In this document: in pieces, positions 3,719-39,036 of the stretch
Position numbering within the stretch: position 1 is the stretch's first letter
Layout: every line of letters begins with the position of its first letter
Virus record (IMG/VR): IMGVR_UViG_3300033417_000023
Location: 1-42,344 of that record
From: a virus
Taxonomy: Duplodnaviria; Caudoviricetes
DNA length: 42,344 nucleotides
Reading direction: 5' to 3' (one strand)
Position numbers and translations under genes: made by a program
Notes under the pieces: generated by a model
The model's database searches: none
What the model saw: only the letters and a program-made list of their open reading frames with translations
Told to the model about the DNA's origin: nothing

Positions 3719-5269
3719 GTGCTCATCGAACCTGACGCGGCGGCTCTGGAAACGGCGCTGCTTTCCAGCCGTCTCCCGTCCGGGGATGACTCCGCCTGGC
3801 AACGCATCTACCGGGACTTACACCCGAAGCAGCGTCGCGCGCTGGACGACCTGGACAACCGCAAGTGCATCCCGAAGGGGCGCCGCGGGGGCGGATCCTA
3901 CTGGGTGGCGGCCTGGCTCCTGGAAGACTTTCAGCTGTGGCCCGGGCAGACCTCGCTGTTCCTGGCGCTGAGCAAGGAGCACGCCAAGGCGATTCTGTGG
4001 AGCACGCTCGAGGAGTTTAACTCCAAGTATTCGCTCGGGGCGGGTTCCGACGGCAAAGAGTACAGCTGGACCTACCCGAACGGCTACCGGATCCTGTTCA
4101 GCGGGTCGAAGGACAAGGCCCAAGTGGAGCGCCTCCGCGGCGTCTCCCCCCACGGGCTGCGCCGCTGCGCGATCGACGAGTCGGGGTCGTTCGGGGCGTA
4201 CGACCTGCAATTCCGGTACATGATCTCGTCGGTCATCGTCCCGCAATTCACCGACACCCATCACCTCGGGGGCGGGCAGCTGGCGCTCATCGGCAGCCCA
4301 GGCGTGGATCCGGCCGGGCTCTACTACGAGCGGTGCACCGGGCGGACTCACGACGGCAAAGAGGCGCTGCAGTGGAGCACACACCGGTGGACGGCGCTCG
4401 ACAACCCGGCGATTGACGCGGCGGGTTACCTGCTCGAGGAGCTGGTCAACGGGGAGCACATCCTCGACGACACGCCGGCCTCGACCATCGTCGAATGGCT
4501 GGTCGCGCTCAAAGACGTCGAGCTTGACGACGAGCGATGGGCGCCGATCCTGGCGCGGCTCAGCGCGGAGTTTCGCCGGGAGTACCTCGCTGACTGGTGC
4601 AAAGACTCCGACTCCCTGGTGTACCTGCCCACTGAAGGGAACTACCTGGACGACGGCTACGAGCTCGACGAGGGCACGCCCTGGCGCGTGGTGGTCTCGG
4701 GAGACATCGGGTGGGGGGACGGCAACGGTTTCGCCGTGGCCGCCAAGTCGCTCCGGTCGAGGACCATCGTCCTGCTCGAGGCGTACTACCTGCCCGAGCT
4801 CAACGACGAGGAGATTGCGAACGAGCTCAAGCGCCTGAAAGCGGCCTACCGCGCCGGGGAGGTCTATATCGATTGCGCGGGCGAGGGGCAGCGGCTGCTC
4901 GCCAACATGGCCCACTTCGGGTTGCACTGCGAGGCGCAAGGCAAGGGCAAGAAGAAGCCGCGGATCGAGTACCTGCGCACGGTTATCGCCAACCGGTCGC
5001 TGCAGATCCGGCGGGACAAGTGCGCCGCGGTGCTGACCGAGTGGAGCGCGCTGCCGTGGAGCGCCGACCGTCAGAACCACCGCGAGTGGTTCGTGGACGA
5101 CGTGAGCGACGCGGTGCTCGGCGCCGTCAACCCGCTCAGCCAGCGCTTTCAGCCCGGCAAGGGGCTGCCCCCGAAGAAGGGGGAGCCGGGCTACGCGGCG
5201 CACCAGGCGAAGCTCGAACGGGCATCCGCCAACCGGCGCGGCCGGCGCATGGCGCGCAGCCGGACCTGA
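3719..5269 (+). CDS. terL: terminase large subunit
   Basis: LHPKQ adenine-binding motif, Walker A-like KGRRGGGS, Walker B CAIDE, coupling motif GSP, DNP...FRREYLA, RNase H-like nuclease acidic residues (SGDIGWGD, YID, DDVSDA). Confidence 0.9.
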   Translation: MLIEPDAAALETALLSSRLPSGDDSAWQRIYRDLHPKQRRALDDLDNRKCIPKGRRGGGSYWVAAWLLEDFQLWPGQTSLFLALSKEHAKAILWSTLEEFNSKYSLGAGSDGKEYSWTYPNGYRILFSGSKDKAQVERLRGVSPHGLRRCAIDESGSFGAYDLQFRYMISSVIVPQFTDTHHLGGGQLALIGSPGVDPAGLYYERCTGRTHDGKEALQWSTHRWTALDNPAIDAAGYLLEELVNGEHILDDTPASTIVEWLVALKDVELDDERWAPILARLSAEFRREYLADWCKDSDSLVYLPTEGNYLDDGYELDEGTPWRVVVSGDIGWGDGNGFAVAAKSLRSRTIVLLEAYYLPELNDEEIANELKRLKAAYRAGEVYIDCAGEGQRLLANMAHFGLHCEAQGKGKKKPRIEYLRTVIANRSLQIRRDKCAAVLTEWSALPWSADRQNHREWFVDDVSDAVLGAVNPLSQRFQPGKGLPPKKGEPGYAAHQAKLERASANRRGRRMARSRT

Positions 5270-11383: not shown

Positions 11384-11695
11384 TTATGGGTTCTTGGCAA
11401 CGGTACCGTCGTCAGACCAGCCCGCAACCACGGTGAGGGCTGCGTCGCTGATCGCGCCCACCGACGCAAAGTCGCCGTCCAGCTCGATATACGTCTCGAT
11501 GGGCACCGTGATCGTGAAGTCGGTTCCGTCGCCGCCGTCCAAGACGACCGTTTGGGCAGTGGTCTCATGGCTGTTCATGAGCAGCACCGTGCTGGCCCGC
11601 ATGCCGAGCGGCAGCCCCGTGATGGTCGCGAGGTTAGTCGATGCCGCGACGTTGCGACGGATGTTGATTCGCCCGCCTCCTGCTGCTTTGCTCAC
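11384..11695 (-). CDS. hypothetical virion protein
   Basis: 103 aa; GTGA overlap with the 1811-aa gene. Confidence 0.65.
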   Translation of the reverse strand: MSKAAGGGRINIRRNVAASTNLATITGLPLGMRASTVLLMNSHETTAQTVVLDGGDGTDFTITVPIETYIELDGDFASVGAISDAALTVVAGWSDDGTVAKNP

Positions 11696-14600
11696 ATGGA
11701 CCTTTCCGCCGCGATCGAGCCGAGGCGAGTTGCTAACCGGGTGGATGATGACCCACCACCCCCAGAATTTCCACCCCCCGTTTCCCGGGCGGCCTGGTCC
11801 GCCGCCGCCTGCTGGTCGATGGCGGCCAGGATATGCCCCGTCATTGCGGGGCTCTGCATGCCGTCCAGGGCCCCGTCAAAGGCCAGGGTGCGGTCGAGGT
11901 AGCTGAGGCGCTCCGGGTCGAGCCCGCCGCCGTCTTCGGCCATCCTGGTGACCACGCCAGCCACACCCACCCGGACCTCGTTCCACAGGGGCTGCCAGGT
12001 CGCCGCGAAGGCCTCGACTGCGGGCGGGGGGGCAGTGCCCCGCCCGATCGCTTTGATGGTCGCCCTGGGCTGCGTGGTGCCCCGCACGCGTGCGCTCCAG
12101 TCCAGCAGCTCATCGTGGGTCGGGGGCAGCCCATCCGGGCGGCTCATGCTCCGCGCCACGGGCTGTGGGCGCACGGACGACAGGTAGGCGACCATCTGCG
12201 CCGCCTGCTGCACCAGGGCCCCGTAGACGCTCGGGTGGGTCCGGGACAGCTCGCCCGTCGATGCCGCCACCCGCTCGATGAGCGCCCTCGGGTCGGCGAT
12301 CAGCTCGTCCAGGGTCTTGCCCAGCGCGAGCGCCGCTTCCGCCGTCAGGGGCACGTCCTCGCGCAGCTTGCTGTCCGAGCGGTTCGGGCGCCGGGTGCCG
12401 ACGAGCTCAGCCACCGCCGCGGCGATCTCAGCCCGCCCGCCTCGAGCGTTCTCGACCATCGCGCGGCTGTAGGCCACCTCTGGGGGCAGCGCGTCGGGGG
12501 GAGGGCGGGGCGGCTCCTCCGCGGCTTGCGCGTCGCCGCCGAACGAGAGGAAGAGCGCGGTGCTGAGGATCGGAATGATACCCTTGACCGCGATAATGCG
12601 CTGTTGCATTGCCTCCGCCTGGCGCTTGACGGCCTCCGGCGATAGCGATGGGTGATGCGCGCGGATGAAGCCCTCCGGGCCGCCCATGCCGTCGATGACC
12701 GCCACGGCCTCGTCAAAGCCCTGCTGCACGACTGAGCGGAGCTGCCCCTTGTTCGGCGCGTAGCTGGCCAACAGCTCGTGGGGAGCGACCGAGCCAACCT
12801 GCTTGAACATGTTTTTTGCGGTGTTGACGTTGCCTCGCCCCTTGCCCTGCGAGACGGTGCGCTGGATGGCCGCAGAGGTCTGCTCGTAGTCGTTGGCGAA
12901 TGGCGAGTTTGCGCCAGCCTCGCCAGCGTCGACCATCAGCGTGGTTTTGCCGTCCGTCATGACGTTGCGCGCGTTGAGTTGCACGTCCCAATTGCCGAGA
13001 ATGATGTCCTTCGGAACCGTGCGCGCGTAGCTGTCGCGCACCGACTGGGGCAGCGTGGACCAGTCCTCGACTGCGTTTAGCTCGCGCCACTCCGGGCCGA
13101 GCCACTCGCTCGCCATGGCCTTGATGCCTGGGGTGTCGCTGGGGGTAAACGGCTCCATGGATCCCCACTCGGGGCCGGGGGTGACCATCTCGTGCTTGAT
13201 GTTGGGCAGGTCAATCTCGACCCACTCGGGTGTTCCTACTCCGAGCGCGCGGTACATGCGCGCGTTGCCGACCTCGATCGCGTTGTGGATGGGGTCCGCG
13301 TCGGCCTTCACGTAGCGGATTTTCCCGTCTTTCCCGCGGAAGAAACCGCCCTCCGTCTTGCCGAGTCTTCCGCTTAGGCGCTCGCTCAGGATGCCGTCAT
13401 GTGCTACACTTCCCACATGGGGCGTAAAGACATCGTTGGTGATCGGCGGGAGTTTGCTCGGGAGCCCGCCGCGAGATGGGACGGGGCTTGGAGCTTGACG
13501 CCCGGTAAACGGGGCAAGGTCTTCCTTGGCTCCCCCGACCGCACGTTCAATGTCCACTGCCTGGCTCGGGAGTTTTTTGCTGGGCTGGAGCAAGGCCCGG
13601 GCACTGGCCGCGTCGGTGGGGATGACACCTCCGAGTGACGCCTCGGCAATGGGGATCTCGCCCTCGTAGATCGGCTTCTTGCCCGGCGCGCGCTTGCCAT
13701 TGAAAACCTGACCATAGACGGTCGCCCTCCCCTGCTCGCGAGCGACCATGAGCCGGTGGCGTCCGTCACGGAGCAGCGGGCCCTTCGGGCCCATCTCGAT
13801 CTGTATGCCCTGCTCGACCTGCCCGGCCTGGTCAACGCGACCAGTCGCCCCGAAGTCGCGCGCGAAGTCGCCCCGCCCGCCCTTGCCCGTGCGCAGCGCC
13901 TCGAGCGTCTCCGGCTTGAACGAGCCCGGGTCGTCGAGCGCGCCGAGGTCCCGCAGGCTCTTGCCGGTCAGGTCGACGGGTGACTGCTTGCCAGCTGCTT
14001 TAGCCGCAGCCTTGCGCCCGCCCCTGCCCGCCAGCAGCGCAAGAGCTCCAGCGCTTGCCCCCATGGCGCCGCTCTCGTCGCCGGGTGCCAGGGCTGCCCC
14101 GAGCCCGAGTAGCCCGGACAGCACGAACCCCACTGGGGCGGCGCCCTTGGGGGCGGCTCGTAGCGTGACCTCGATGTGGCCGAACAACTTGCTTTCACTG
14201 CGCGCCACGTCCACGACCTCGAACGTCGCGCCCGGGGGCAAAAGCGCCTCCCGCTCGGACGACCCATATTGCTTCGAAAACCCTGCCGCCGAGAGTGGGG
14301 ATGCACGCTCGACCTTCTCGAACTTGAGCACCACGGGAACGTGCCCCATCTCACGCGCGCGTGCCGTGTCCGCGAACATGTCCTTTGCGTAGAACGCATC
14401 GAACGACGTGCTGGTAAGCTCGCCCGTCTCGACCGTCTGGGCGTTGACGAGGCGGGTCGCGTCTTCGGGCCTGAGGCTGAGACCGCGCCAGAGCGGACCC
14501 ACGGACTCGGTCAGACCCGAGCGCATCAGCTTCTCGGTGGCGCTCTCGAACGCCTCTAGCGAGTCGGCAAACCGCTCCTTGCCGGGTATGGGCGTGCCCT

Positions 14601-17127
14601 GCTGCAGCGCCCGGAACGCGGCGGCGCCACCGCCCTCGATATAGTCGAGGAGCGCCAGCTGCTCGTCGGGCTGCAAAGCCTTGATGTCTGCGCCGGTCTT
14701 GCGCGCTAGCGAGATGAGCGCCTTGCTGTTCGTGGGGATGGTGTCGAGACCACCGTGCGTGACCTTGCTAAAGCCTGCCTTGCGATCGACACGCGCCATG
14801 GCCAGCTCTGTGGCTGCGTCGTCGATCGCGGGCTTTACTTTGGGCGTGTCGATGCTGGCTTGGTATTCGTAGCGCGCGGTCCCTTGCGCGTAGCCCTTGT
14901 CGTTGATCGCGAAGGGGCGCCCGTCCGCCGTAACCCCGAGCCGGCTGGCATCGAACTCGCGTTCCATGCGGCCATTGCGCACCGGCACCTTGGCGTCGCG
15001 TAGCAACGTGTAGAGGTGCTCCTTGCCAGTCTCGCTCAGCTCCTTGGATATCTCGCGCTCAGTCTTGTAGCCCGACAGGCGACGCGCCACCTTGCGTCCG
15101 CCTCTGCCCGCCAGCAAAGCCAACGCGCCCGCGCTAGCTCCCATGGCGCCGCTCTCATCGTCTGGCGCCGCCGCTGCCCCAGCGAACAACGCGCCTGCTG
15201 CCACCTTGCCGCCGTGCTCACGGAGCGCGTTCTGCATCCACTCGGAGTAGTTCCGGCTGATGCTGGCCTCCGCCAAGTCGGGGTGCTTGGCGTAGCGACT
15301 GAGCCCGCGATCCCACACATCGGCGAGCCGCGTGCCGGCGGTGAGGCGCGTGCCTTCGGCGATGCGCCCCAGGTTGCGCGCCGCGCTGACTGCCCCGCCA
15401 ACGACGGGCGCCTGCGAGCCGATGTCGGCAATGAGGTTGGCCCACTTCTGCGGGTCGCGCCGCGCGTGCGCTGCTTTGTTCTTCGCGACACCGATCGTGC
15501 TCGCGAGGTTCCAATCCTCTTTGAGCGAGCGAATGTCGCCCGCCAGGTTGTCGAGGTTGTCCATGCGCGACAAGCCCCAGCGCTGGCGCGCCTCGACCAT
15601 GTTGGTCAAGCCGTCGTAGGCCTTGGCCAGGTGGCGCTGGAGCTCGACGTTCAGGCGCGGGTCTTCGCTCAGCGCCGACAGCGCCTTGCGCGTGGTGCCC
15701 TCCTTGACGATGCGCCCAGCGCCCGCGTGGTTGTAAAGCGTCTCGCCGGTCTTATCGAGGAACGTCTCCTCGACCTTGCGCCAGCTCTTGAGCAGCTGCG
15801 TCCAGCCCGCGTTCAGCTCCTTGTTGAGATGCGCGTTCCGCCCGAACTTGACCGGGTCCATGAGGCCCGTGCGGATGTCCTCCTGCAGCGGCTCAATCAG
15901 ATCCTTGAGCGCGGCGCGCGTGGGGTTGTCGATGCCGAACGAGGCGTCGATCTTGACCACCTGCTTTTGCAGGTCACGCTTGAAGTTGTCCGCCAGGTAG
16001 TTGCGGCGTGCGCTGTTGGGCGAGTTGGCGATCTGCCGCGTGTAGTCGTCGATGGTCTTGAGCGCGACCTTGCCCGCGTTGCCGTAGTCGATCGCGTCGA
16101 TGTCGCCCTTGGGCTTGCGGCGCAGCTCTTCGGCGACGCGCGCGCCCTTCTCTTCGAGGTCCACGAACCACTTCGCCTGAAGCGTCTCGGTGCCCGCGTC
16201 CCACTCCTTGGCGCCTTTCTCGAAGTCCTGGTATTTGACTGCGTTGCCCAAGTCCTCGTCGAGGCCGCGATAGAGGCGCGTGAAGCTGTCCGCGCTGTGG
16301 GTCGAGATGAGCTTGTAGTAGTCGTCCGAATCGCGATCGAGAATGACCGCGTCCCGGTCGCTCATCTCCTTGATGGCGGGCTCAAAAGCGTCGTCGAGGT
16401 CGCTGGCGCGCGCCGCGCCCACGCTGCCCGGGCGCTCGCCGATGGGGCCCGCCTTCTTGCGAAGCACCTCGTTCGCCTCGCTGACGATGTTGCGCGAGCC
16501 GCCCCCGAAGATGCTCGACAGCCCCTTTCCCACCCCGCGAAACAGCACGTCACCCAGGGCAAACATGCCCGTGTAGGTCGCGACGTTCTTGAGCTCGGCG
16601 GGTCGCTCCTCCAGCCACGCATTCTCGCCCTCCTGCGCCACGGCCTCGATGGCCGCCTCCGTGCCGATGGCCGCCGCGGTGCCCGCCAGCCCCGCGCCGA
16701 CCGCGCCAGCCGCAAGCGCTCCGCCCGCCAGCGCCACGGGGGTAGCCGTTGCGAGCTGGCCCGCCATGGCGCTGAACGGGTGAGCCTCCGCTCGCAGCCG
16801 CGCCTCGTCGCCGAAAGCATCCGGGAAGGCCTGCTCGGCAGAGCTCGTGCCCTCCCCCTCGAGCCCGGCGGGAACGGGCGCGCTAAGGCCAGTCGCGTCG
16901 CCGATGAGCCCCGCGGCGCGGCCCACCATGCGCTGCCCGCTCTCGAGCGCCGCTCGCCCGGAGAAGCCGCCCTCGTCAGCCGCCTTGACCGCCTCAGCCT
17001 GGTCGTGCTGGTCGAGGTCGCGTTGCGTCGCGGGCGCATAGCCCTGGCGCTGCAGCTCGGTCAGGTCTTCGGGGTGCGCGACGTCCGCCTCGACGAGGCG
17101 CCCCATCGAATCGACGAAGTAGGCCAC
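11692..17127 (-). CDS. large ejection/internal virion protein with ADP-ribosyltransferase, ParB-like and HipA/PI3K-like kinase domains (polyvalent protein)
   Basis: Third and largest gene after the nozzle, with Gly/Ala hydrophobic segments. ART R-S-E motifs LWRG / TSTS / EREALL; ParB-type LRDGRHRL; kinase motifs GGFF...YVK...E...GNWDV...N...VDAG. Confidence 0.8.
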   Translation of the reverse strand: MAYFVDSMGRLVEADVAHPEDLTELQRQGYAPATQRDLDQHDQAEAVKAADEGGFSGRAALESGQRMVGRAAGLIGDATGLSAPVPAGLEGEGTSSAEQAFPDAFGDEARLRAEAHPFSAMAGQLATATPVALAGGALAAGAVGAGLAGTAAAIGTEAAIEAVAQEGENAWLEERPAELKNVATYTGMFALGDVLFRGVGKGLSSIFGGGSRNIVSEANEVLRKKAGPIGERPGSVGAARASDLDDAFEPAIKEMSDRDAVILDRDSDDYYKLISTHSADSFTRLYRGLDEDLGNAVKYQDFEKGAKEWDAGTETLQAKWFVDLEEKGARVAEELRRKPKGDIDAIDYGNAGKVALKTIDDYTRQIANSPNSARRNYLADNFKRDLQKQVVKIDASFGIDNPTRAALKDLIEPLQEDIRTGLMDPVKFGRNAHLNKELNAGWTQLLKSWRKVEETFLDKTGETLYNHAGAGRIVKEGTTRKALSALSEDPRLNVELQRHLAKAYDGLTNMVEARQRWGLSRMDNLDNLAGDIRSLKEDWNLASTIGVAKNKAAHARRDPQKWANLIADIGSQAPVVGGAVSAARNLGRIAEGTRLTAGTRLADVWDRGLSRYAKHPDLAEASISRNYSEWMQNALREHGGKVAAGALFAGAAAAPDDESGAMGASAGALALLAGRGGRKVARRLSGYKTEREISKELSETGKEHLYTLLRDAKVPVRNGRMEREFDASRLGVTADGRPFAINDKGYAQGTARYEYQASIDTPKVKPAIDDAATELAMARVDRKAGFSKVTHGGLDTIPTNSKALISLARKTGADIKALQPDEQLALLDYIEGGGAAAFRALQQGTPIPGKERFADSLEAFESATEKLMRSGLTESVGPLWRGLSLRPEDATRLVNAQTVETGELTSTSFDAFYAKDMFADTARAREMGHVPVVLKFEKVERASPLSAAGFSKQYGSSEREALLPPGATFEVVDVARSESKLFGHIEVTLRAAPKGAAPVGFVLSGLLGLGAALAPGDESGAMGASAGALALLAGRGGRKAAAKAAGKQSPVDLTGKSLRDLGALDDPGSFKPETLEALRTGKGGRGDFARDFGATGRVDQAGQVEQGIQIEMGPKGPLLRDGRHRLMVAREQGRATVYGQVFNGKRAPGKKPIYEGEIPIAEASLGGVIPTDAASARALLQPSKKLPSQAVDIERAVGGAKEDLAPFTGRQAPSPVPSRGGLPSKLPPITNDVFTPHVGSVAHDGILSERLSGRLGKTEGGFFRGKDGKIRYVKADADPIHNAIEVGNARMYRALGVGTPEWVEIDLPNIKHEMVTPGPEWGSMEPFTPSDTPGIKAMASEWLGPEWRELNAVEDWSTLPQSVRDSYARTVPKDIILGNWDVQLNARNVMTDGKTTLMVDAGEAGANSPFANDYEQTSAAIQRTVSQGKGRGNVNTAKNMFKQVGSVAPHELLASYAPNKGQLRSVVQQGFDEAVAVIDGMGGPEGFIRAHHPSLSPEAVKRQAEAMQQRIIAVKGIIPILSTALFLSFGGDAQAAEEPPRPPPDALPPEVAYSRAMVENARGGRAEIAAAVAELVGTRRPNRSDSKLREDVPLTAEAALALGKTLDELIADPRALIERVAASTGELSRTHPSVYGALVQQAAQMVAYLSSVRPQPVARSMSRPDGLPPTHDELLDWSARVRGTTQPRATIKAIGRGTAPPPAVEAFAATWQPLWNEVRVGVAGVVTRMAEDGGGLDPERLSYLDRTLAFDGALDGMQSPAMTGHILAAIDQQAAADQAARETGGGNSGGGGSSSTRLATRLGSIAAERSM
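14011..14079 (-). repeat. linker repeat copy 2 (DESGAMGASAGALALLAGRGGRK)
   Basis: Amino-acid identical to 15091..15159 and exactly 1080 bp away. Confidence 0.95.
15091..15159 (-). repeat. linker repeat copy 1 (DESGAMGASAGALALLAGRGGRK)
   Basis: 12 of 69 nt differ from copy 2, all synonymous. Confidence 0.95.
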
Positions 17128-17130
17128 GGG

Positions 17131-19266
17131 CTATCGCCCCCGATTCGTGGGGCCGGTGACAGGGCGGACGTTGACCCCGCCCGCGATCGGGAACTGGTTC
17201 TGTAGCTTCCACGCGGCCCGCACGGGCGCCTGGGTGGACGACTGCACCTCGGTGCGCCGCGCCTCAATCTCGCGCCGGAGCTCGGCCAGCTTCTTCGGCA
17301 CGTCCGCGTCCAGCGTCGGCTGGTCGATGCCCGCGTACTCGTCTTGCTTGGGCGCGCTGTTGGGCTCGCTCTTCCAGCCCATGCGCGAATTGAGCTCCAC
17401 GGCGGTCCACGCCTGGCGGAGCGAGCGCGCCTTGGCGGCCGCGTCGTCGTCGCCGATCTCGTCGAAAGCATCGAATGGGTCGTAGCCCGTGGCGCTGCTC
17501 ACGTAGTCGGCGTCCTTGGGGTAGTTGCCCGCGGAATCCGGCTGGACGCCGTATGCCTGCTCCAGCGTGGCGAGGTCGCGCTCGAGCTGCCCCACCAGCG
17601 ACATGCCGGTTCCCATCTGCTTGAGCTGCTGTACGTGCGCGGGGTTGCGCGTGTCGAACTTCGCCGCCAGCGCGGCGCGCGTTGCCGGGTCGCGATCTTC
17701 GGTGCCGACCGGCGCGAGCTCGGTGCCGACCACCGGTGCCTCGACGGGCTTTGGCGGCTGGTAGACGATGCTGAGGCGCTGGTTCTCGCGGTCCACCAGG
17801 CCCTGCGCGAGCTGCTGCCCTTCGGCCATAATCTCTGCGGACGCGGCCAGCGCTTGCGCCTGAATGTCCGCGTTGTCGATCTGCGTGCGCGCCAGGTTGT
17901 CCACGCGCTTGGCGGTGACGATGCGCTGCTCTGCCCGCGCTGCGTCCACGCCGCTATCCGCGTTGTTGAGCACGCGCGTCCAGTGGGCGACGCGGTTCTC
18001 CTTGGAGCGCTCGCCGCGGTTGAGCGCGTCCTTCTGCGCGTCCACGTCCGCGTCTAGCGCCTGGTTTAGCATGTCGATCGCGGGGTTGCGCGCGCCCTTC
18101 GCTCCGCCAGTGACGAGCAAGCCTTGGCTGATGCCTCCAAGGATGAGCGCGATCGATCCCATGACGATGTCCCCGGTGCTCATGTTCTTGATGAGTCGGA
18201 TGGGGTCGACCTTGCCGACAGGCTCCGCGAAAGTCTCTTGGATCTTCTTGTTGGCCGCGTTGCGCACGGCGGTCTCGTGCTGGATGCGATAGGCCGCATC
18301 CTGCTCGAAGCGCTGCGCCTGCGCGTCAACCTCTGCCATGGCCTCGTTGCGCCCTGCCACGCGGCTTTGCGCGGCGTTCTGCACGAATGCCGCCTGCACG
18401 TTGGTGCTGTCCATGGTCTGCTGCTGGCGCTGGCGAACTTGCTCGGGGGTGAGCGGGACGCCTTGCGTAGTGACTTGCGCCGGCAGCATGCCGGGGATCT
18501 GTGGGATGACCGGGCCCGTCGCGCGGGGCTGACCTTGTGCGACGCGGGATAGCAGGCTGCCCGGGTCAGCCGTGGCGGTCTCTTCGCGCGAGCCCACGGT
18601 CGCGCCCGACTCCTGGCGAGCCATGGCTTGCGCCAGCTTGTCGCGGGGCACCTCCGAGAGCGGGGTGTCCGCTGACACGCCGGTGAAGCCCGCCACGTTG
18701 CTCGTGTAGCGCGCCACGTCGTTCTCGAACTCGGGCGCGTACTTGCCGATGAAGCTCCCGAGCGTGTGCCCGCGCTGCGCGTCCAGCTCAATCTGGCGCT
18801 CGAGCGCGGAGTAGCCGGCCTCCGGCGTCTCGAACTTGGCCCAGCTGCCCCCGCCCTTCTTGTCCTCGCCCCTCGTGGCGCCAGCCTGCCCCGCAAACAT
18901 CAGGTTGCCCGGGTTGTTGTGTACGTAGGCGATGCGGCTCGCCTCGGGGATGTTGATGCCCTGTTGCGGCTCGGCGCCTGGGGTCGACATGGCTTCCGTC
19001 TGGCGTTGCACGACGTCCGGCGTGATGGGAGCCTGCGGCACGACGGGCTCGGGCTCGGGCTCGGGCACTGGGGGCGGGGCCATCTGCGCGCCCGACTCGG
19101 CTTGCCACTCGTTAGCCTTGCGCAAGTCCGCGATGCGGCTCGCCTCCACGGGGTCGTAGCCGTACGTGGGGGTGCCGTCCTCGTCGATGAACTCGCCGAT
19201 CCCCCAGGTCTCGTCGTCGTCCGGGTCGTAGATATCCGGGTCGGGCAAGAAGTCTGTGTAAGCCAC
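17131..19266 (-). CDS. internal virion/ejection protein with NNPGN lysozyme-like peptidoglycan hydrolase domain
   Basis: HNNPGNL...F.TPEAGY.AL...TL..FI.KYAP..END...Y...AMARQESG (about 18605-18935); later hydrophobic segment IVMGSIALILGGISQGLLV and coiled coil. Confidence 0.75.
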   Translation of the reverse strand: MAYTDFLPDPDIYDPDDDETWGIGEFIDEDGTPTYGYDPVEASRIADLRKANEWQAESGAQMAPPPVPEPEPEPVVPQAPITPDVVQRQTEAMSTPGAEPQQGINIPEASRIAYVHNNPGNLMFAGQAGATRGEDKKGGGSWAKFETPEAGYSALERQIELDAQRGHTLGSFIGKYAPEFENDVARYTSNVAGFTGVSADTPLSEVPRDKLAQAMARQESGATVGSREETATADPGSLLSRVAQGQPRATGPVIPQIPGMLPAQVTTQGVPLTPEQVRQRQQQTMDSTNVQAAFVQNAAQSRVAGRNEAMAEVDAQAQRFEQDAAYRIQHETAVRNAANKKIQETFAEPVGKVDPIRLIKNMSTGDIVMGSIALILGGISQGLLVTGGAKGARNPAIDMLNQALDADVDAQKDALNRGERSKENRVAHWTRVLNNADSGVDAARAEQRIVTAKRVDNLARTQIDNADIQAQALAASAEIMAEGQQLAQGLVDRENQRLSIVYQPPKPVEAPVVGTELAPVGTEDRDPATRAALAAKFDTRNPAHVQQLKQMGTGMSLVGQLERDLATLEQAYGVQPDSAGNYPKDADYVSSATGYDPFDAFDEIGDDDAAAKARSLRQAWTAVELNSRMGWKSEPNSAPKQDEYAGIDQPTLDADVPKKLAELRREIEARRTEVQSSTQAPVRAAWKLQNQFPIAGGVNVRPVTGPTNRGR

Positions 19267-21582
19267 TTAGACGGCCCCGGCGGCGCGCAGCTTGCGGTGA
19301 ATCATCGCCACTGCCGCCAGCGCCGCCATGCCCGCGCGCGCGTCGTCCACGCCAAGGAACCCGTCGGGTCTGCGGACGACCATCGTTCTACCGAGCCGCG
19401 ACTGCTGGAGGTCTTGCGCCATGCCGCCGAAGAAGCGTCCCGCACCATGCGCCGACGGGTCCGCATACTCGAAGGTCTGCGGCTCGAACAACTCGAGCAG
19501 CTCCTCGAGGTCCGCGTCCGTGGCGTCGGCAATCTCGACCTTGGCGGCGCGGTCGGAAGCTAGTGCCGCCTTGGTGCCGGCAGAGCTGATGCCGCCGATT
19601 GCGCCGCCGGCCGTGTTGACGGCCAGCTGCTCCAAGAACGTCGGCTGGGCGTTGATCTGGTCGATGGTGTTCTGCCGGCTTGTGTCGCTCGCTTGGTTGC
19701 CCAGCGTCAGCTGCACGTCCCGGTTGGCGCCCTGGTTGTAGGTGTTCTGCGCGATGTTCTCGCCGGTGAGTGCCTGGTCTCCCGCTCGCCCCAGGAAGTC
19801 GAGGCCCTGGCCCATGGCCTCGTTGCCGAGTCGGCCGTATCCGAGCTGGCCCTCGAGCGCGAGTTGTTGCGCTTGCAGAGCCCGGTCCGCGTCGCTGGTG
19901 AGCGCGTTGATGTCCTGCCCACGGATGGTCGCGTTGGTGCCGGCTAGGCCAAGCTCCTGGGTGACGTCCTGGCCGCGGGTGCCCAGCGCGGTCGCCTGGT
20001 TTCCCTGCAGCGCGCTGAGGTTCTGCCCGCGCATGCCGAGCTGCGCCGACTGGTCCGCGGTGAGCCCCTGTAGGTTCTGCCCGCGGGCGCCAAGCTGGGT
20101 GCTCTGGTCGCCCTGCAGCGCCGACAGGTCTTGCCCTCGGGTCGCGACGCTCGTGTTGGCGCGTAGCCCCTCGAGCCCCAGCCCCGTGCTCTGGTCGCCT
20201 TGTAGGGCGCTCAAGTCCTGCCCCCGGGCACCGAGTGCCGTCTGAGCGCGGAGGCCCTCCAGCGCCGTCCTCGTGCTCTGGTTGGCCATCGCCCCCGACA
20301 GGTCTTGACCACGGGTACCAAGCTGCGTCGACTGGTCTCCCTGCAACGCGCTGAGGTCTTGCCCGCGGAACGCCAGGTCTTGCCCGCGCATCGCCGTGCC
20401 AAGCTCGCCGCCGAGCCCGATGGCGCTCAGCTGGCGGTTCTTGAGCATGTCCTCCTCTTGCGCGCGGAGGGTGGCCATCTGCCCCATGGTGTCGGAGGCG
20501 ATGGCGCCGCCCTCGGAGATGGCTCCGCGGAGCGCTTGCGCCTGCGAGCCAGCGCCTCCACGCCCGGAGCGAGCCGCGCCGATGAGCGAGGCCATGTTGT
20601 CGGCCTGGCCCTGCTGCAACTGGGCCTCCGCGATGCTGGGGCCCTGGGGTCCATCGAGGAATCCCTCGAGCCGCCCCATCATGCCTTGCTGGTTCTGCGA
20701 GGACAGCCCCAGGTTACCGAGCTGCCCCGCCACGTTGGCAGGGCCGGCTCCCATCCGGATGTCCCCCACGTTGCCCACCTGGGGCGCCGCACCGAGCCTG
20801 CCAGCGACGTTGGCGACCCCGCCAACCTGGTAGCCGCCGCCGAGCTGGCCCGCCACGTTGCCCGGCGCTCCGCCGAGCTGACCCATCACGTTGTTGACTC
20901 CGCCGAGCGACCCCGGGTCCACGTTGCCCACCCCGGCGTGCTGCTGCGCCTGGTTCTGGTAACCCAGGTTGAAAGCTGGCTGCCCAGCAGGCGCGCCTCC
21001 ACCTCCACCCTGCGGCGCGCCGTTCAGGATGCCGGGATCCAGGAACCCGCCCGATCCGCCGCGCGGGGCTGGTGCCGGGGGCGCGCCGCCGTAGGTCTGC
21101 GCTCCGCCCGTGATGCTCGGCGCGGTCGTCTGGTAGCCGGCGCCGAGCTGCTGAAAGTTGGACGCCGTGCCAGCCTGCGAGTCGTAGACGTTGCCGCCAC
21201 GAACGGCCATGGCCTCGCCGAGCCCGCGCGCGTTGTCCATCTGCCCGGAGCGGGACGCGGCGTACGCTGCTTGCGTCGCCGCTGTGGGCGCCCCTCCGTA
21301 GCCCTGTGGCGCGTTGGCTGGCGCCTGCGTCGAGGCCGTGGTCGGCAGCTGGCCCAGCTGCATGAACTGGTTCTGCTGCTGGTCCGTCCGCGGCGCGGCT
21401 TGCGCGGCAGCAATCTCGGCCGGCGTGCGCGGGTCCACGATGCCAGCGTTGGCGGCCTGGTCATACTGCTGCGTAGACGTCGCAGCGTTCTTCAGGATCT
21501 TTTTGAATGTGCCGCCGCCGCTCGGCGCCGGCTGCGACACGCCTCCCGCGTCCAAGTTGTATCGATCGAGCCTGCTCGTCAT
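19267..21582 (-). CDS. Gly/Gln-rich ejection (DNA pilot-like) protein with C-terminal peptidase S74 autocleaving chaperone
   Basis: RGQDLSALQGDQST repeats; C-terminal SDRAAK...FEY...GGMAQDLQ...V...DG matches the S74 intramolecular chaperone pattern. Confidence 0.7.
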   Translation of the reverse strand: MTSRLDRYNLDAGGVSQPAPSGGGTFKKILKNAATSTQQYDQAANAGIVDPRTPAEIAAAQAAPRTDQQQNQFMQLGQLPTTASTQAPANAPQGYGGAPTAATQAAYAASRSGQMDNARGLGEAMAVRGGNVYDSQAGTASNFQQLGAGYQTTAPSITGGAQTYGGAPPAPAPRGGSGGFLDPGILNGAPQGGGGGAPAGQPAFNLGYQNQAQQHAGVGNVDPGSLGGVNNVMGQLGGAPGNVAGQLGGGYQVGGVANVAGRLGAAPQVGNVGDIRMGAGPANVAGQLGNLGLSSQNQQGMMGRLEGFLDGPQGPSIAEAQLQQGQADNMASLIGAARSGRGGAGSQAQALRGAISEGGAIASDTMGQMATLRAQEEDMLKNRQLSAIGLGGELGTAMRGQDLAFRGQDLSALQGDQSTQLGTRGQDLSGAMANQSTRTALEGLRAQTALGARGQDLSALQGDQSTGLGLEGLRANTSVATRGQDLSALQGDQSTQLGARGQNLQGLTADQSAQLGMRGQNLSALQGNQATALGTRGQDVTQELGLAGTNATIRGQDINALTSDADRALQAQQLALEGQLGYGRLGNEAMGQGLDFLGRAGDQALTGENIAQNTYNQGANRDVQLTLGNQASDTSRQNTIDQINAQPTFLEQLAVNTAGGAIGGISSAGTKAALASDRAAKVEIADATDADLEELLELFEPQTFEYADPSAHGAGRFFGGMAQDLQQSRLGRTMVVRRPDGFLGVDDARAGMAALAAVAMIHRKLRAAGAV

Positions 21583-24515
21583 CGGGTGCCCTTCCGTGAT
21601 GCCTTGCGCCCACGAATCACCTCGAGCTGCAGGTGATTGAGGGTCTGCGCCTGGCTCGGCGTGTCGTCCGCGTCAGCGGTGATTCTGATCTCGATCACGA
21701 ACCGGTTCCCTTTTCTTCGTGGAGGGTACCACGGAAGCTCGATTGTCTCATTGATTGCGAGACCTTCCACGTCAAGCGGCTCGATCACGCAGCTGTGGAA
21801 GCTGCCCGCCAAGCCGTCGTCATAGCTCACGACCGCCTCCACTCTGTGGGAACCCTTGAACTTCCCGGTCGTGCTGAAGCCCTTGAGCCGAGCCCAGCCA
21901 TCGAAGTAGGCGCTGGCCGCGATCGAGCCCGTGCGCGCCGTCAGGGGAAGAAAGCTTGCGCCGGGGTAGGCGGTGTCCTGACGGTAGACGGTCGTTCCCA
22001 CCACCACGACGAGCCTCCCGAGGTGCTCAACCATGGCGCGGATGGGCCCGCCCCCGAGGTCTTCCAGCGTGTCGACGTACCAGACGCCCGCGCGCGTGTC
22101 GTAGCTCACGAGGCGCCCGTCCGTGCCCGCCGCGTTCTGCACGGCCCAGCTCACGGTGTTTTCGGTGGTGCTGATGGCCACCGCGGTCGTGACCGGGAAC
22201 TCGGTGAGCGTGTCGCGCACGGCCTGGCTGAGCCACTCCACCGACGCGCCGCCGCGGGGCATGAGCATCAGGCGGTCCGGCGCCGAGCGGAACCACGCGC
22301 CCTCAGCCGTGGCGGCGACGCTCCGCCAGTCGGTCACGCCCGTGTCGTTGCCGGGCAGCAATCGCGGCGGGTTGAATTCCCCGTCCCCCACGTCGTTCGG
22401 TCCCACCCCGCCGACCACGTAGAGCGCTTCGCGCGTGGCCACGATCTCGTTTTCGTCGATGGCAAACACCGCGGACACGAACCCGTTGACGTGGAAGAAG
22501 TGCCCCGGGAACTCGCTCCACTCCAGCGGCTCGTCGGGGAAGACGCGCTTGCTGCGCTGGACCTGGGAGCGGTTCGGCAGCCCGCCGTTGGTGATGCGGT
22601 CGCGCCCTGCCCAGAGGTATTCCGCGGGGTAGGGCGCCTCGTGTTGGAGCGGGCCCGAGAGGTTGCCCCGCGCGCCCTGGGTGTAGACGACCTCCTGCGT
22701 CAGAATCTCGCTATCGCTCGCCTGGTCATTGGTCGCGAGCGCCACCCCATCGACGGGGAAGCCGAAGACGGCGCGCCGCGGCACCCGGTCCGGCGCCGGA
22801 CGCGTGCGGTAGCCGATGGTCCTGACCGCTGCCCGCCGGGTGTGGGGCGAGGACAGCACGAGGTCTACCTCGTCCTCGCCGGCGCCCGTGGTCACCTGCA
22901 GGTCGGTGGACACCGGGCTCAGGTGCCGGTTATTTTGCGCGTCGCGCCAGTCCCACACGCTGGTGTAGCGGTAGACGGACTCCGGGGTCAGGTCGCCGTC
23001 CGTGCTGGGGGTGCCGCTCACCACGACCGGGGTCTCAAAGAACCCACTCTCCACCGTCTGGCTGCCGTCCCACACGGCCACGAAACCGCCCGCGATGTAG
23101 AGCAGATTGCCCATGGTCGCGGTCTGTCGGCGCTCCGGCGAGCAGAGCCGCATCTGCATCACGACCGGCGCGTTTGCGCAGTTGAGGTCGCTCACGGGGA
23201 ACACCGCCCAGTGGTAGGTCCCGTCCGTGGCCGTGCTCCCGAGCCAGGTGGAGAGCGCATCGACGGCAAAGCCCCGGTGGTGGGCGAGCTCGTAGCCCCG
23301 GGGCGCGATCAGGTCGATCACCCCGGTGAAGCTGGTTAGGCTCCCCTCACCATGGGGGCCGACCACCCCAACGAAGAGTCCATCCGAGCTCACCAGGTGC
23401 TTGCTCTGCTGGCTCAGTTCCCGGTGGGTGGCCGCGGTGACGGAGCTGTGGCTCGAGGCCACCCGGGTGTCGACCTTGAGCTGGCTGTCGATGGTGTCCG
23501 GGATTGCGGCGCTCACGATGACGTTCAGGCCCACGATCGAGATGGCTGGCGGCCTGGTCCCCGTGGAGCCACCAAAGAGCGCCGTGGGGCCCGTCTGGCT
23601 CGTCAACGTGGGGGTATCGAAGGACTCTAGCCCGTACCCGCCCCCGCTTCGCACGTAGGCCACGTGGGTCAGCCCGCCCGACACGCTGGCGACGCTCCCG
23701 GCCACCACGTCCGTGGCCGTCAGGGTGACCGAGTCCGTGACCGTGAGGGCGAGCGCGCAGCGCCGGAGCGTGGCCGTCCCGGTCGATTGAACCACGAGCA
23801 ACATGAACTCGGAGGCGCCGGCTACCGGCGCCAGGTCGATGCCGTCCGTGACGGTGCCCGTGCTGTGGAGGGTGGTCTCCCCGCTCAACGCCGTCGAGGT
23901 GCCTACGACGAAGGTCGAGGCCACCACGTTCGTCCCGTTGTGGAACGCGAACACGAAGGTCGAGCCCACGCCGGTGACGCGCGGCCGCGTGCGGGCCGCA
24001 ACGCGCGCGGCGAACAGCACGGCACCGGTCGCGGGCTCAAAGATGTGCACCAGGCTCGCCCCCGCGTTGTCTTCGTGGACCAGCGCCAGGTAGCCGGCGG
24101 CGTACGCCAGGTCGTACAGCTGCGCCTCGTCGGTGGCGGTGTAGGGCGGGCGGAACACCTGGCGGAGCTCGGTCACGGCGGAGAGCGAGCGCCGACCCGT
24201 GCCCACGTCCTCGCCGACCCACTCCCCTGACTCCTCGTCGAGCGCGAAGAGCTTCTCCGGGCCGCTCGCGTCCGCGTCGGTGGTGCCCATCGCCAGGAGC
24301 CGGTCCCCGTGGCTCACGAGGTCGAACGCGCGCAGTGTGCCGCCCCCGAAGACGTTCGAGCCCAGCTGCGTGTAGCTCAGCCTCACACCAAGCTCGCCCG
24401 TCTTGTAGAGGCGGCCGTTGGTGATGACGCGGAAGAGCCCTTCGGGGAGTAGCTTCTCGTCGAGGTCTTCCCTGGCACCCGAGTTAAAGGGAATCGGGAT
24501 GAGCTCTACGGGCAT
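21579..24515 (-). CDS. tail nozzle / tail tubular protein B-like
   Basis: 978 aa, beta-propeller-like composition; starts IPFNSG...D and ends with LVSYD...WY and terminal beta strands; immediately upstream of the ejection genes. Confidence 0.7.
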   Translation of the reverse strand: MPVELIPIPFNSGAREDLDEKLLPEGLFRVITNGRLYKTGELGVRLSYTQLGSNVFGGGTLRAFDLVSHGDRLLAMGTTDADASGPEKLFALDEESGEWVGEDVGTGRRSLSAVTELRQVFRPPYTATDEAQLYDLAYAAGYLALVHEDNAGASLVHIFEPATGAVLFAARVAARTRPRVTGVGSTFVFAFHNGTNVVASTFVVGTSTALSGETTLHSTGTVTDGIDLAPVAGASEFMLLVVQSTGTATLRRCALALTVTDSVTLTATDVVAGSVASVSGGLTHVAYVRSGGGYGLESFDTPTLTSQTGPTALFGGSTGTRPPAISIVGLNVIVSAAIPDTIDSQLKVDTRVASSHSSVTAATHRELSQQSKHLVSSDGLFVGVVGPHGEGSLTSFTGVIDLIAPRGYELAHHRGFAVDALSTWLGSTATDGTYHWAVFPVSDLNCANAPVVMQMRLCSPERRQTATMGNLLYIAGGFVAVWDGSQTVESGFFETPVVVSGTPSTDGDLTPESVYRYTSVWDWRDAQNNRHLSPVSTDLQVTTGAGEDEVDLVLSSPHTRRAAVRTIGYRTRPAPDRVPRRAVFGFPVDGVALATNDQASDSEILTQEVVYTQGARGNLSGPLQHEAPYPAEYLWAGRDRITNGGLPNRSQVQRSKRVFPDEPLEWSEFPGHFFHVNGFVSAVFAIDENEIVATREALYVVGGVGPNDVGDGEFNPPRLLPGNDTGVTDWRSVAATAEGAWFRSAPDRLMLMPRGGASVEWLSQAVRDTLTEFPVTTAVAISTTENTVSWAVQNAAGTDGRLVSYDTRAGVWYVDTLEDLGGGPIRAMVEHLGRLVVVVGTTVYRQDTAYPGASFLPLTARTGSIAASAYFDGWARLKGFSTTGKFKGSHRVEAVVSYDDGLAGSFHSCVIEPLDVEGLAINETIELPWYPPRRKGNRFVIEIRITADADDTPSQAQTLNHLQLEVIRGRKASRKGTR

Positions 24516-24736
24516 TATCTCCCCTTCGGAGTCGTGGCGCGCTTGATCTGGTCCTGGATGTCCACAACGTTCTGATGCGTCAGCGGCTTGCTCGGTGGCG
24601 CCGCGGGCTTGAGCAGGCCCAGCTTGCGCGCGAGCTTGCGCCCTGCAATGTAGACGTCGTCAGCCCGCTCCACGAGCATCGCCGCGCCGGTCAGCACGGT
24701 GGATGCCCCCTTGAACGCTGCGCCCCAGAGGCTCAC
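24515..24736 (-). CDS. hypothetical lysis-cassette protein (73 aa)
   Basis: GTGA overlap with the endolysin stop; TAATG overlap with the nozzle gene. Confidence 0.55.
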   Translation of the reverse strand: MSLWGAAFKGASTVLTGAAMLVERADDVYIAGRKLARKLGLLKPAAPPSKPLTHQNVVDIQDQIKRATTPKGR

Positions 24737-25182
24737 GATGCACCCATGAAGTGGATGAGCTCCAGCGTCCGGCGCTTGAGCAAGCCCGGGTGGAACTTGC
24801 CGCCCGCCTTGTTCCACACGGTGAATTGCGCCGCGGCCTCGGGGCGCATGCCCCTATTCAAGAGTCGACGCAGCGTGGACTTCCCGAATGCGCCGAGCCC
24901 GATGTTAAAAGCCAAACTCACCAGCGCATCAAACTCGTTCTGAGTCACCTCGACGTCGAGCAGGCTCGACACGCCGTTCTCGAAGCGGACCAGGTCCGTG
25001 GCCAGCAGGCGGTCCGCCTCCGCGCGAGTGATCTCTTTGCGCGCCGTCACGTCGGCCCGCGTCACGTCGGGGCCCGTGTGGCCGTAGCCGATCGTCGGCA
25101 CGCCAGCGGGGCAGAGGTAGGCCTTCAGCATCAGCCCCTCGAAGGAGCCGATCATGTCGACCATGCGCGCGGAGGTATTCAT
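24733..25182 (-). CDS. endolysin, GH24 phage lysozyme
   Basis: FEG...AYLCPAGVPTIGYGHT, QNEFDALVSLAFNIG, GLLKRR..E. Catalytic triad reads E-x8-C-x5-T. Confidence 0.95.
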   Translation of the reverse strand: MNTSARMVDMIGSFEGLMLKAYLCPAGVPTIGYGHTGPDVTRADVTARKEITRAEADRLLATDLVRFENGVSSLLDVEVTQNEFDALVSLAFNIGLGAFGKSTLRRLLNRGMRPEAAAQFTVWNKAGGKFHPGLLKRRTLELIHFMGAS

Positions 25183-25439
25183 CAGTCAGCGCCTACGAAG
25201 TGAGTCAGGAACGCCAGCACCTGGTCCCACGGGACCTGGCTGAGCGCCGTGAGTACCGTGAGCGCAATCGCCACGATGCCGCCCTTCTTCGCGTTCCCCA
25301 TCGGCTTGTGGGGCGGAGGCAGCGTCGTGGCGCGCAGCCTGGACCGCTCGTCGGCGATGACCTGCGCGTAGGAGCCTGGCTCCAGCTTGGGCTTGCGGGG
25401 CGGGGGAAAGCCGGGCTCTGTGTCGTCGGTTGCGCTCAT
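25182..25439 (-). CDS. membrane protein, holin-like candidate
   Basis: C-terminal hydrophobic helix GIVAIALTVLTAL preceded by KK; TGATG-coupled to the endolysin. Confidence 0.55.
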   Translation of the reverse strand: MSATDDTEPGFPPPRKPKLEPGSYAQVIADERSRLRATTLPPPHKPMGNAKKGGIVAIALTVLTALSQVPWDQVLAFLTHFVGAD

Positions 25440-29473: not shown

Positions 29474-29686
29474 TCAGCCCCCGTCAGGCTGCTCGGCGGG
29501 CGCGGTCTTGCACTGCCTTACCGCACTGACGAGCTGCACCGCGTCACTGAGCGTGACGAGGTTCGGGTCTTCGGGCAGCGCGTCGAGCGCGCTCAGGCGG
29601 CAGCGTAGCCCCTGCTGAGCAGCGGGGGTGCACGCCACCAGGGCGAACAGCACGAGGGCCTTACAGGTCTTCTGGAACGAGCGCAT
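29474..29686 (-). CDS. small lipoprotein (70 aa)
   Basis: AGGA RBS; MRSFQKTCKALVLFALVA|C lipobox; two further Cys residues. Confidence 0.65.
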   Translation of the reverse strand: MRSFQKTCKALVLFALVACTPAAQQGLRCRLSALDALPEDPNLVTLSDAVQLVSAVRQCKTAPAEQPDGG

Positions 29687-38986: not shown

Positions 38987-39001
38987 GACGCAACCCACCC
39001 C

Positions 39002-39030: not shown

Positions 39031-39036
39031 TATTGC

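Follow-up and report, generated by a model that had tools for sequence, protein, structure and literature searches.

Described systems similar to the locus

Phage-type polyvalent proteins are large proteins of the late region that mix ADP-ribosyltransferase (ART), kinase, ParB-like and GNAT domains. They are thought to be injected and, as virion proteins, to need a peptidase of their own for splitting (Iyer et al. 2017, PMC5512222). The 1811-aa phage protein analyzed here is similar in that several disparate conflict domains are present in one late protein, with an architecture that varies across its family. It differs in that the cargo is placed at a single hot spot, with a fixed chassis domain on either side, and its kinase-like module keeps the C-terminal lobe and is HipA/PI3-4K-like, whereas the kinases of PMC5512222 are truncated. 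The terms "transmembrane" and "signal peptid" are absent from the main text of that paper. A Pfam search of 44 family proteins reveals no MPTase or LPD marker domain above the cut-off, apart from which an LPD23 match with an E value of 0.13 is seen in P0004 only; these markers are frequent among polyvalent proteins but do not occur in all of them. No description of the protein family was found in the literature searched.

The ejection proteins of podoviruses (P22 gp7/gp16/gp20, T7 and epsilon15) are mutually unrelated in sequence, and P22 gp7 provides a precedent for processing by a host protease, OpdA, which trims an N-terminal leader (PMC8402733). The locus shares with these systems three adjacent large genes after a putative tail gene, one muralytic domain and hydrophobic stretches. 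There is no significant sequence or fold match to them, however, and the portions of PMC8402733 drawn on here describe neither a cassette of enzymes that can be exchanged nor a signal-peptidase site within a protein. T4 Alt (PMC9503650) and MuF-fused effectors carry an R-S-E ART in the virion that acts early, as is proposed here, and a further likeness is that the family draws on the same cargo pool as L018, a large phage protein to which it is unrelated. The cargo here is internal and not C-terminal as in MuF fusions, with predicted membrane helices on its borders. The Bxa prophage polymorphic toxins of Bacteroides combine a conserved phage-encoded N-terminus with variable enzymes, ART included, and have cognate immunity genes (PMC11699363). 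They conserve the N-terminal domain, whereas here both ends are conserved and there is no evident immunity gene.

The joints resemble two kinds of signal peptide (PMC9360617), i.e., Sec/SPI signal peptides with an n/h/c layout and Ala-X-Ala, and prepilin signal peptides, where cleavage follows Gly at the n-h border and which a second type of joint (A-type, see below) recalls. Both differ from the joints described here, which are internal, with over 640 residues ahead of them.

The gene and its neighbourhood

The DNA analyzed (the window) is 42,344 nt in length. The gene is located at positions 11692–17127 on the minus strand according to the ORF call, and is the largest and last of three adjacent putative ejection-protein genes. 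The open reading frame in the initial annotation was confirmed, as were the positions of all three quoted linkers, both RGGRK segments, DGRHR, PLWRG/STS/ERE and the kinase-like motifs. The upstream neighbour (17131–19266, minus strand) encodes 711 aa with a lysozyme/transglycosylase-like domain that matches PHROG 873 (E 1.3e-13) and PHROG 7182, "tail injection transglycosylase" (E 6.3e-12), and provides a putative context for an ejection operon. The second upstream neighbour (19267–21582, minus strand) encodes a Gly/Gln-rich protein of 771 aa with a weak C-terminal match to an S74 chaperone domain (PF13884, E 9e-4, under the cut-off). The trio, one member of which has a muralytic domain, is downstream of putative tail genes, where the 978-aa tail protein is assigned from position only. 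The putative portal, tail and capsid have no profile support in PHROGs, nor do the putative tail and portal in PDB profiles. From this gene context we infer that the protein may be located in the virion and may act before phage gene expression.

A gene of approximately 100 aa is directly downstream in seven of the eight loci listed. It appears alike by eye in the window, L001, L002 and L008 although the cargo differs, and no cargo-specific gene or evident immunity gene is seen downstream in the loci listed. No GenBank phage matches the chassis, terminase, putative capsid or putative tail, and RecT matches at 50% point to no particular host. Two short matches in a GTDB scan (L012, L013) were judged to be chance. 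The terminase gene is at 3719–5269 on the plus strand; an antisense ORF at 3818–5755 was rejected as terminase.

The protein may alternatively be a late product that is never ejected, inserted by Sec/YidC and cut in the producing cell, with a role in lysis timing, superinfection exclusion or host control. The last joint resembles a Sec/SPI signal well, SRP or SecA can target helices within a protein (PMC9360617), and known virion proteins do not match the chassis. The gene order of related loci nevertheless speaks against it, in that a putative tail gene, a transglycosylase-bearing gene and a gene of the 1811-aa type follow one another in a conserved order. The same kinase-like and ART modules also recur in L018, a large phage protein of no relation to the family, which a common pool of virion cargo would lead one to expect. 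We consider such a role improbable.

Conserved ends and exchangeable cargo

A comparison of 91 sequences reveals an unannotated phage family with 74 non-redundant members that have both ends, at identities of approximately 20–65% between members. The N-terminal chassis (residues 1–640, positions 15208–17127, minus strand) is conserved, with 64 matches, and contains a Gly/Ala hydrophobic stretch at residues 125–155 (16663–16755, minus strand). The C-terminal chassis (residues 1536–1811, positions 11695–12522, minus strand) is conserved in 74/74 members and represents the predicted periplasmic piece. The C-terminal toxin typical of polymorphic toxins is therefore not found, as the cargo is internal. 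Between the ends there is no cargo in 27 members, and 47 carry ART, kinase-like, ParB-like, GNAT-like or unassigned modules. Members with sister chassis carry different cargo (P0022/P0023, P0006/P0010, P0060/P0013 and P0062/P0064). Variable cargo between conserved ends, as the initial annotation had anticipated for homologs, is thus directly observed.

The fold of the chassis was modeled with AlphaFold on a cargo-free relative, P0036 (pLDDT 78). The N-terminal part of the model is mostly helical and the C-terminal part is helical. It gives generic helical-bundle matches only (best Z 10.5, rmsd 2.7 over 104 residues), with no Foldseek E value below 0.001; this does not demonstrate a new fold. 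Comparison with solved or predicted ejection proteins by sequence, fold and PDB profiles shows no match for the chassis, and neither the whole protein nor its single domains have a meaningful match in Pfam, PHROGs, NCBIfam or PDB. GlgX_C and D-amino-acid oxidase rows in the direct family searches were treated as chance.

The joints between chassis and cargo are 25–40 residues long, and their predicted helices follow a parity pattern, helices being called by a hydropathy rule. At three thresholds, the last cargo is followed by a single helix in 36–39 of 43 proteins, and the first is preceded by either none or two in 34–36 of 43. Where any helix precedes the first cargo there are two in only 16/23, 16/23 and 18/27 proteins. 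The last helix is undetected in 12 of the 74 members, three of which have sub-threshold A-type helices. L003 breaks the parity rule, since hairpin, cargo and AxA are present without the last helix.

Enzyme modules

The ART module is at residues 810–992 (positions 14152–14700, minus strand). Its motifs are intact (R881, S906-T-S908 and E958-x-E960) and are in register with those of 28 other family ART domains. A profile seeded with two Pfam-passing relatives, and trained without the 1811-aa protein and its three closest ART relatives, matches residues 816–973 at an E value of 4e-21. A six-sequence profile that includes the 1811-aa protein matches solved R-S-E ARTs with a best E value of 1.4e-14, a score that may be driven by the row of L018, a canonical ART. 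The domain taken directly has no Pfam match and reaches only PHROG 3895 at E 0.2, so the family match is transitive. Judged from the held-out profile and the motif set, the module is a member of the R-S-E ADP-ribosyltransferase family, as had been claimed. The ART is preceded by a segment missed in the earlier reading, Module X (residues 682–770, positions 14818–15084, minus strand), which looks helix-turn-helix-like by eye only. Module X has no Pfam match, is found in four members and always precedes the same ART type (4/4).

The ParB/Srx-like module is at residues 1051–1161 (positions 13645–13977, minus strand). The superfamily motif, (D/N)GxHR after a strand, is represented by (D/N)GRH in 10/10 family copies, with Arg as the next residue in 9/10. 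Atlas neighbours at 0.90 include ParB_N (26%), and only five of ten named matches agree; there is no Pfam match. The HipA/PI3-4K-like kinase module (residues 1235–1510, positions 12598–13425, minus strand) has K1274, E1285, D1381, N1388 and D1400 invariant in 7/7 family copies and also in L018. We take these to be the Lys, the Glu, the catalytic Asp/Asn and the metal Asp of kinases. An insertion of about 24 aa is present in this copy only. Atlas neighbours of the module at 0.93 are clusters with HipA_2 (21%) and PI3_PI4 (12%). The module has no Pfam or PDB kinase match; its family profile found no solved kinase, and a search for kinase homologues of 155–496 aa found none. The sole return of the kinase PDB profile, a beta-propeller repeat, was rejected. 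A single-sequence fold of the cargo region (pLDDT 40.6) gave no structural match. The motifs conserved in ten and seven members and the weak Atlas matches thus suggest the ParB and kinase identities given in the initial annotation, although Pfam and PDB do not return them.

The earlier reading placed three hydrophobic linkers at the domain boundaries. The linkers are real at their positions, but the ParB-like and kinase-like modules are separated by a Pro-rich spacer (residues 1162–1234, positions 13426–13644, minus strand) that has no hydrophobic helix.

Linkers 1 and 2

Linker 1 (residues 641–679, positions 15091–15207, minus strand) consists of a hydrophobic helix, a PDDE loop, a return helix and RGGRK, and is predicted to form an uncut membrane hairpin. 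Linker 2 (residues 999–1039, positions 14011–14133, minus strand), also a predicted uncut hairpin, combines a formerly terminal ART helix with a copy of the loop and return helix of linker 1. The two represent one duplicated unit of 96 nt with 79% identity. A core of 23 aa is identical in both while the codons differ at 11/23, which indicates that the core is under purifying selection. An assembly artefact was rejected, as the copies differ at synonymous sites. Repeated hairpins of their own are also present in P0021 and P0012.

In P0002, L010 and P0012 the counterpart of the first helix of linker 2 is the terminal helix of that ART module and ends in xASA↓AE (the arrow marks the predicted cut); in linker 2 this site is replaced by the return-helix copy. 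In linkers 1 and 2, Pro comes directly after the A-x-A, and relatives do not conserve this A-x-A. A Pro at +1 would block signal peptidase I (SPase I), and a conserved A-x-A without a following Pro is not found at either linker. An acidic loop and a basic exit, with the enzymes on the cytoplasmic side, agree with the helix and charge patterns, which support the hairpins proposed in the initial annotation as predictions. Since the helices are short and Gly/Ala-rich (helix 1 of linker 1 has 14 residues, 21% LIVFM), their spontaneous insertion into a membrane is doubtful.

Linker 3

Linker 3 (residues 1511–1535, positions 12523–12597, minus strand) is a single hydrophobic helix ending in DAQA↓AEE, with a predicted cut between positions 12523 and 12522. 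It has the layout of an SPase I substrate, i.e., a basic n-region, a hydrophobic h-region and an A-x-A c-region. Last helices in the family are preceded by basic residues in 37/61 cases (acidic in 3) and followed by acidic residues in 47/61 (basic in 2). A generic AxA rule is satisfied by 37/42 last helices that are not A-type, compared with 17.9 in shuffled sequences (0/2000 shuffles as high). It is depleted in first hairpin helices (4/25 against 10.0), and is found in 2/24 return helices (2.8 shuffled) and 4/19 A-type last helices (3.5 shuffled). The strict motif is present in 0/46 non-final helices. The site profile has Ala at +1 in 30/38, Glu at +2 in 28/38 and Gly at -5 in 19/38. These counts come from the same related sequences in which the AxA and QxG motifs were noticed. 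One AxA match, in P0047, is probably chance. The basic, hydrophobic and AxA↓AE order is also present at the cargo joint of many empty members, and AxA↓AE, which could have been inherited along with the C-terminal chassis, is located behind several unrelated-looking helix sequences.

The initial annotation had proposed that the linkers may be cut and release the effectors; in its full form, with signal peptidase or a different protease of the membrane acting at each of the three, the enzymes would be freed separately. An A-x-A before acidic residues is indeed seen at all three, although the conserved AxA↓AE is confined to linker 3, the only linker with a predicted signal-peptidase site. The return helices are Gly/Ala-rich, as are the substrates of intramembrane proteases. 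The depletion of AxA in hairpins and the Pro that follows it there do not fit the release of each effector; nor do the replaced site in linker 2 and the absence of a linker between the ParB-like and kinase-like modules, and a periplasmic cut would leave the cargo tethered by the return helix. Separate release is quite improbable for this protein, yet it may hold in A-type relatives, where QxG flanks the cargo on both sides. With the conserved AxA↓AE at the last linker only, the protein is likely to be designed for a single cut that leaves its enzymes anchored at the cytoplasmic face.

Cutting by a phage protease, which had also been suggested, may be modeled on maturation during assembly as in T4 Alt or MPTase polyvalent proteins, for which PMC5512222 provides a precedent. 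The window ORFs that were scanned have no protease family match, and none of the other ejection genes, nor the putative scaffold, capsid or portal, contains AxA↓AE. Such a protease would also have no need of the hydrophobic helix or the asymmetry of charge. This explanation is very unlikely.

A second type of joint

The A-type cassettes lack AxA. Within 32 aa before the helix, in most cases not directly adjacent to it, they have a prepilin-like (Q/E)xG↓ motif in 19/21, compared with 1.9 in shuffled sequences. The motif is often also present before the cargo in A-type relatives and is absent from the joints of the 1811-aa protein. In contrast to prepilin signal peptides, the A-type sites listed do not follow the GFTLIE consensus with Glu at +5, and joints before the cargo have no membrane helix behind them. 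A QxG match in P0010 is probably chance. Two loci fetched later, L015 and L026, fit the two joint patterns.

The joints may also belong to a scaffold that is never cut, where the helices anchor the ejected protein or serve in docking and AxA↓AE and QxG are inherited joints. Some members have no such helix, and the N4 virion RNA polymerase is packaged unprocessed (PMC5512222). An inherited, uncut joint does not readily explain why AxA↓AE persists behind a variety of helices at identities of approximately 20–65%, is lost where a QxG cassette replaces it, and was removed where a terminal helix became part of a hairpin. We regard an uncut scaffold as unlikely.

Proposed mechanism and evolution

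On balance, we think that the protein is probably an ejection protein of a short-tailed phage with an exchangeable cassette. Its hydrophobic joints are predicted to insert in the inner membrane of the host, whereby the enzymes would face the cytoplasm, and host SPase I would cut the protein once, at the last joint. It would be packaged in the virion, ejected and enter N-terminus first. Linkers 1 and 2 would remain uncut as hairpins, whose acidic loop would lie outside and whose RGGRK would lie inside. Linker 3 would be a stop-transfer/signal helix, and a cut at DAQA↓AEE would release the C-terminal 276 aa into the periplasm. The ART, ParB-like nuclease/NTPase and kinase, tethered to the membrane, may then modify host targets at the site of entry, in takeover or counter-defence. 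This explanation gives no account of how the producing cell would spare the protein from export and cutting.

The cargo may have been inserted at an ancestral single signal helix, either before it or behind a duplicated helix and a return helix; the duplicated helix plus return helix would keep the cargo on one side. In the second cassette type, (Q/E)xG↓ before the helix would replace AxA behind it.

A broader reading, which we hold to be possible although doubtful, is that sites for host membrane proteases are hidden in the ejected protein and provide its maturation step in the new host, with SPase I and prepilin-peptidase cassettes interchangeable and linked to cargo. One cassette type would be cut outside by signal peptidase I and the other inside by prepilin peptidase, whose additional sites would also free each cargo enzyme. 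The helix-parity rule would keep every added enzyme cytoplasmic, and the envelope conduit would double as a polymorphic effector-delivery device that has no need of a phage protease.

Biological implications

The family suggests an alternative to carrying a peptidase, in which topology is written into the joints and host membrane proteases process the protein after ejection. Such a solution would reveal which end of the ejection protein enters the cytoplasm. It would also show how a conduit protein can gain enzymes without breaking, and how effectors act at the site of entry ahead of gene expression. The 27 empty and 47 loaded members represent a natural catalogue of early host-takeover or counter-defence domains, several of which are still unnamed.

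Protein family and exchangeable cargo

The ORF at 11692..17127 (-) of this viral record (42.3 kb, 99% completeness) encodes an 1811-aa protein, P0001, and all motifs quoted in the initial annotation were found at the positions claimed. Family searches returned 15, 14 and 64 proteins (the query counted in each), and six locus ORFs were added. Conserved N-terminal and C-terminal domains (the chassis) are both present in 76 of the 91 sequences; removal of two duplicates left 74 members. Empty members number 27; the other 47 are loaded, with cargo modules between the two ends. Cargo was assigned by profile in 43 loaded members and is without assignment in 4. Counted by protein, it comprises ART (28), ParB-like (10), kinase-like (7), X (4) and GNAT-like modules (3, labelled by eye). 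In a chassis tree built by a quick method, near-identical or sister chassis bear different cargo or none. Cargo has thus been exchanged between conserved ends, as had been proposed, and the architecture is not invariant. The cargo of P0016/L009, L005, P0057 and P0076 and the inserts of P0011, P0034, P0037, P0038, L007 and P0023 have no match to the profiles or to Pfam. The protein at L029, 14585..16687 (-), is a 701-aa form without most of the N-terminal helical domain.

Cargo domains

The 1811-aa protein, whole and in parts, has no meaningful match in Pfam, PHROGs, NCBIfam or PDB sequences. Its ART domain is supported transitively, via relatives and profiles. Three relatives, P0012, P0032 and P0049, score above the cut-off for PF03496, and a profile seeded with P0032 and P0049 (P0001, P0002, P0012 and L010 left out of training) matches residues 816–973 with an E value of 4e-21; R881, STS and E958xE960 are in register. 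A profile built from six ART domains matched solved R-S-E enzymes. The fourth module, X (residues 682–770), precedes ART in 4 members. The kinase-like module, found in 7/74 members, has invariant Lys, Glu, Asp, Asn and Asp residues; among the named clusters of the Atlas it lies nearest to HipA_2 and PI3_PI4 (0.93), and no kinase match was found in Pfam or PDB. It is also present in L018 (6323..11479 (+)), an unrelated 1719-aa phage protein that bears a Pfam-positive ART. The N-terminus of L018 appears head-morphogenesis-like by eye; a Pfam scan gave no MuF match. The ParB-like module (10/74 members) has (D/N)GRH and a weak Atlas lead, and in P0001 it is joined to the kinase-like module by a Pro-rich spacer rather than a helix.

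Joints and linkers

Many empty members have a single joint that consists of basic residues, a hydrophobic stretch and AxA|AE. In one empty clade (P0072, P0075, P0077, P0079) the joint has no hydrophobic helix, but one lies about 80 residues upstream. Loaded members display three forms: cargo before an AxA|AE-type helix; hairpin-cargo-helix (21 proteins including P0001, by hand labelling); and A-type cassettes (21), which end in a Ser-Pro-Met/Leu/Ile helix. The number of helices beyond the last cargo is exactly one in 36–39 of 43 proteins; ahead of the first cargo it is 0 or 2 in 34–36 of the 43. There are exceptions, L003 above all.

A last helix was found in 62/74 members. Proline at +1 generally blocks signal peptidase I. 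The generic rule applied was A-x-A shortly after the helix with +1 not Pro, compared with shuffled sequences. It is satisfied by 37/42 last non-A helices (17.9 shuffled), 4/19 A-type last helices (3.5; the four include P0012, wrongly placed in this group), 4/25 first hairpin helices (10.0; the group includes a few non-hairpin spacers) and 2/24 return helices (2.8). A stricter motif, composed after the sequences had been inspected, is present in 22/62 last helices, 0/46 inner helices and 2/157 chassis helices. None of the eight further proteins of the window that were checked has AxA|AE. L015 and L026, two later additions that are both kin of counted members, agree with the AxA|AE and A-type patterns. 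Signal peptidase cutting, initially suggested for the linkers in general, is predicted by the contrast between last and first hairpin helices at one joint, the last; the idea that all joints are cut is probably wrong. Cutting at every linker is quite unlikely, the opposite case, an anchor with no joint cleaved, is rather unlikely, and cutting of joints by a phage protease is very unlikely.

Linkers 1 and 2 are probable membrane hairpins, as first described, and charge asymmetry around the helices fits the positive-inside expectation. The two represent a duplication (79% identity over 96 nt). Over 32 codons there are 15 synonymous differences and 3 amino-acid changes, and a 23-residue core is identical despite 11 changed codons, which implies that the amino-acid sequence is being maintained. 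In P0002, L010 and P0012, the helix that forms the start of linker 2 ends the X-ART module and is followed by xASA|AE; in P0001 this motif has given way to the loop and return helix of the duplication. On addition of cargo, an end predicted to be cleavable thus became a hairpin predicted to stay uncut.

A-type joints originate at 11 places on the chassis tree. The motif (Q/E/D/T)xG|(F/A/S/H/M)(V/A) occurs within 32 residues before the A-type helix in 19/21 cases (1.9 shuffled), and the QxG-like motif is also frequent before cargo (44 matches, 11.8 expected). It resembles prepilin peptidase cleavage after Gly (PMC9360617). However, the joints do not fit GFTLIE, and the motifs before cargo have no following helix.

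Gene neighbourhood

Upstream are genes for 711 aa (17131..19266 (-); transglycosylase-like domain), 771 aa (19267..21582 (-)) and 978 aa (tail by position only), an order kept in related loci. The 771-aa product is Gly/Gln-rich, with many short repeats and a weak match to a C-terminal S74-like chaperone motif, which suggests self-cleavage. The 711-aa ejection-like gene also swaps a module, by eye: the window and L008 share a muralytic domain, whereas L003, L010 and L011 have a different, SLT-like domain at this position. The 1811-aa gene and the 711-aa and 771-aa genes form a trio similar to podovirus ejection genes (PMC8402733), and the label "ejection protein" derives entirely from this resemblance. 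A chassis model of the cargo-free relative P0036 (67 sequences, pLDDT 78) gave no specific match.

The terminase large subunit gene (3719..5269 (+)) is inverted relative to all structural neighbours, here and in 7/7 other related loci having a match (L001–L003, L005, L008–L010), and is distant from the putative small subunit at 32182..32760. There are weak scaffold and small-terminase matches, and a lysozyme gene (PF00959) flanked by small hydrophobic genes (24515..25439 (-)). A small gene between putative head and tail genes (29474..29686 (-)) has a lipobox-like N-terminus by eye, which suggests a two-membrane host. Replication-initiator, Cas4-like exonuclease and RecT genes are at 36349..41591 (+); no integrase was found among the window ORFs scanned. 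A DUF6948 gene (E 3e-18) is followed by a Gly-Tyr/Gly-Asp dipeptide-repeat ORF that runs past the contig end (41846..42342 (+)).

Proposed mechanism and relation to known systems

For packaging, insertion, cutting and targets of the protein, which we infer, the most likely reading, favoured by a little over even chances, is the following. The protein would be ejected and thread N-terminus first, uncut hairpins would hold the enzymes at the cytoplasmic face, and a single signal peptidase I cut would free the C-terminal domain outside. This reading is weakest on three points: the hairpins have low hydrophobicity, some members have no helix, and the protein would need to escape export during assembly. 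A rival reading, in which the protein is exported in the producing cell, is quite improbable.

The protein would work like phage polyvalent proteins (PMC5512222, PMC9503650), and its chassis is probably that of an ejection protein. It is not a C-terminal toxin of the MuF/Bxa type (PMC11699363). The terms "transmembrane" and "signal peptid" are absent from the main text of PMC5512222, and "transmembrane" from PMC9503650. The literature searched (few subscription papers, no supplements) held no published account of the family, and the architecture lists of PMC5512222 could include members. The family is real, has a clear grammar of joints and is a variant of virion-borne polyvalent proteins that apparently had not been described; its unmatched cargo modules are candidate new early effectors.
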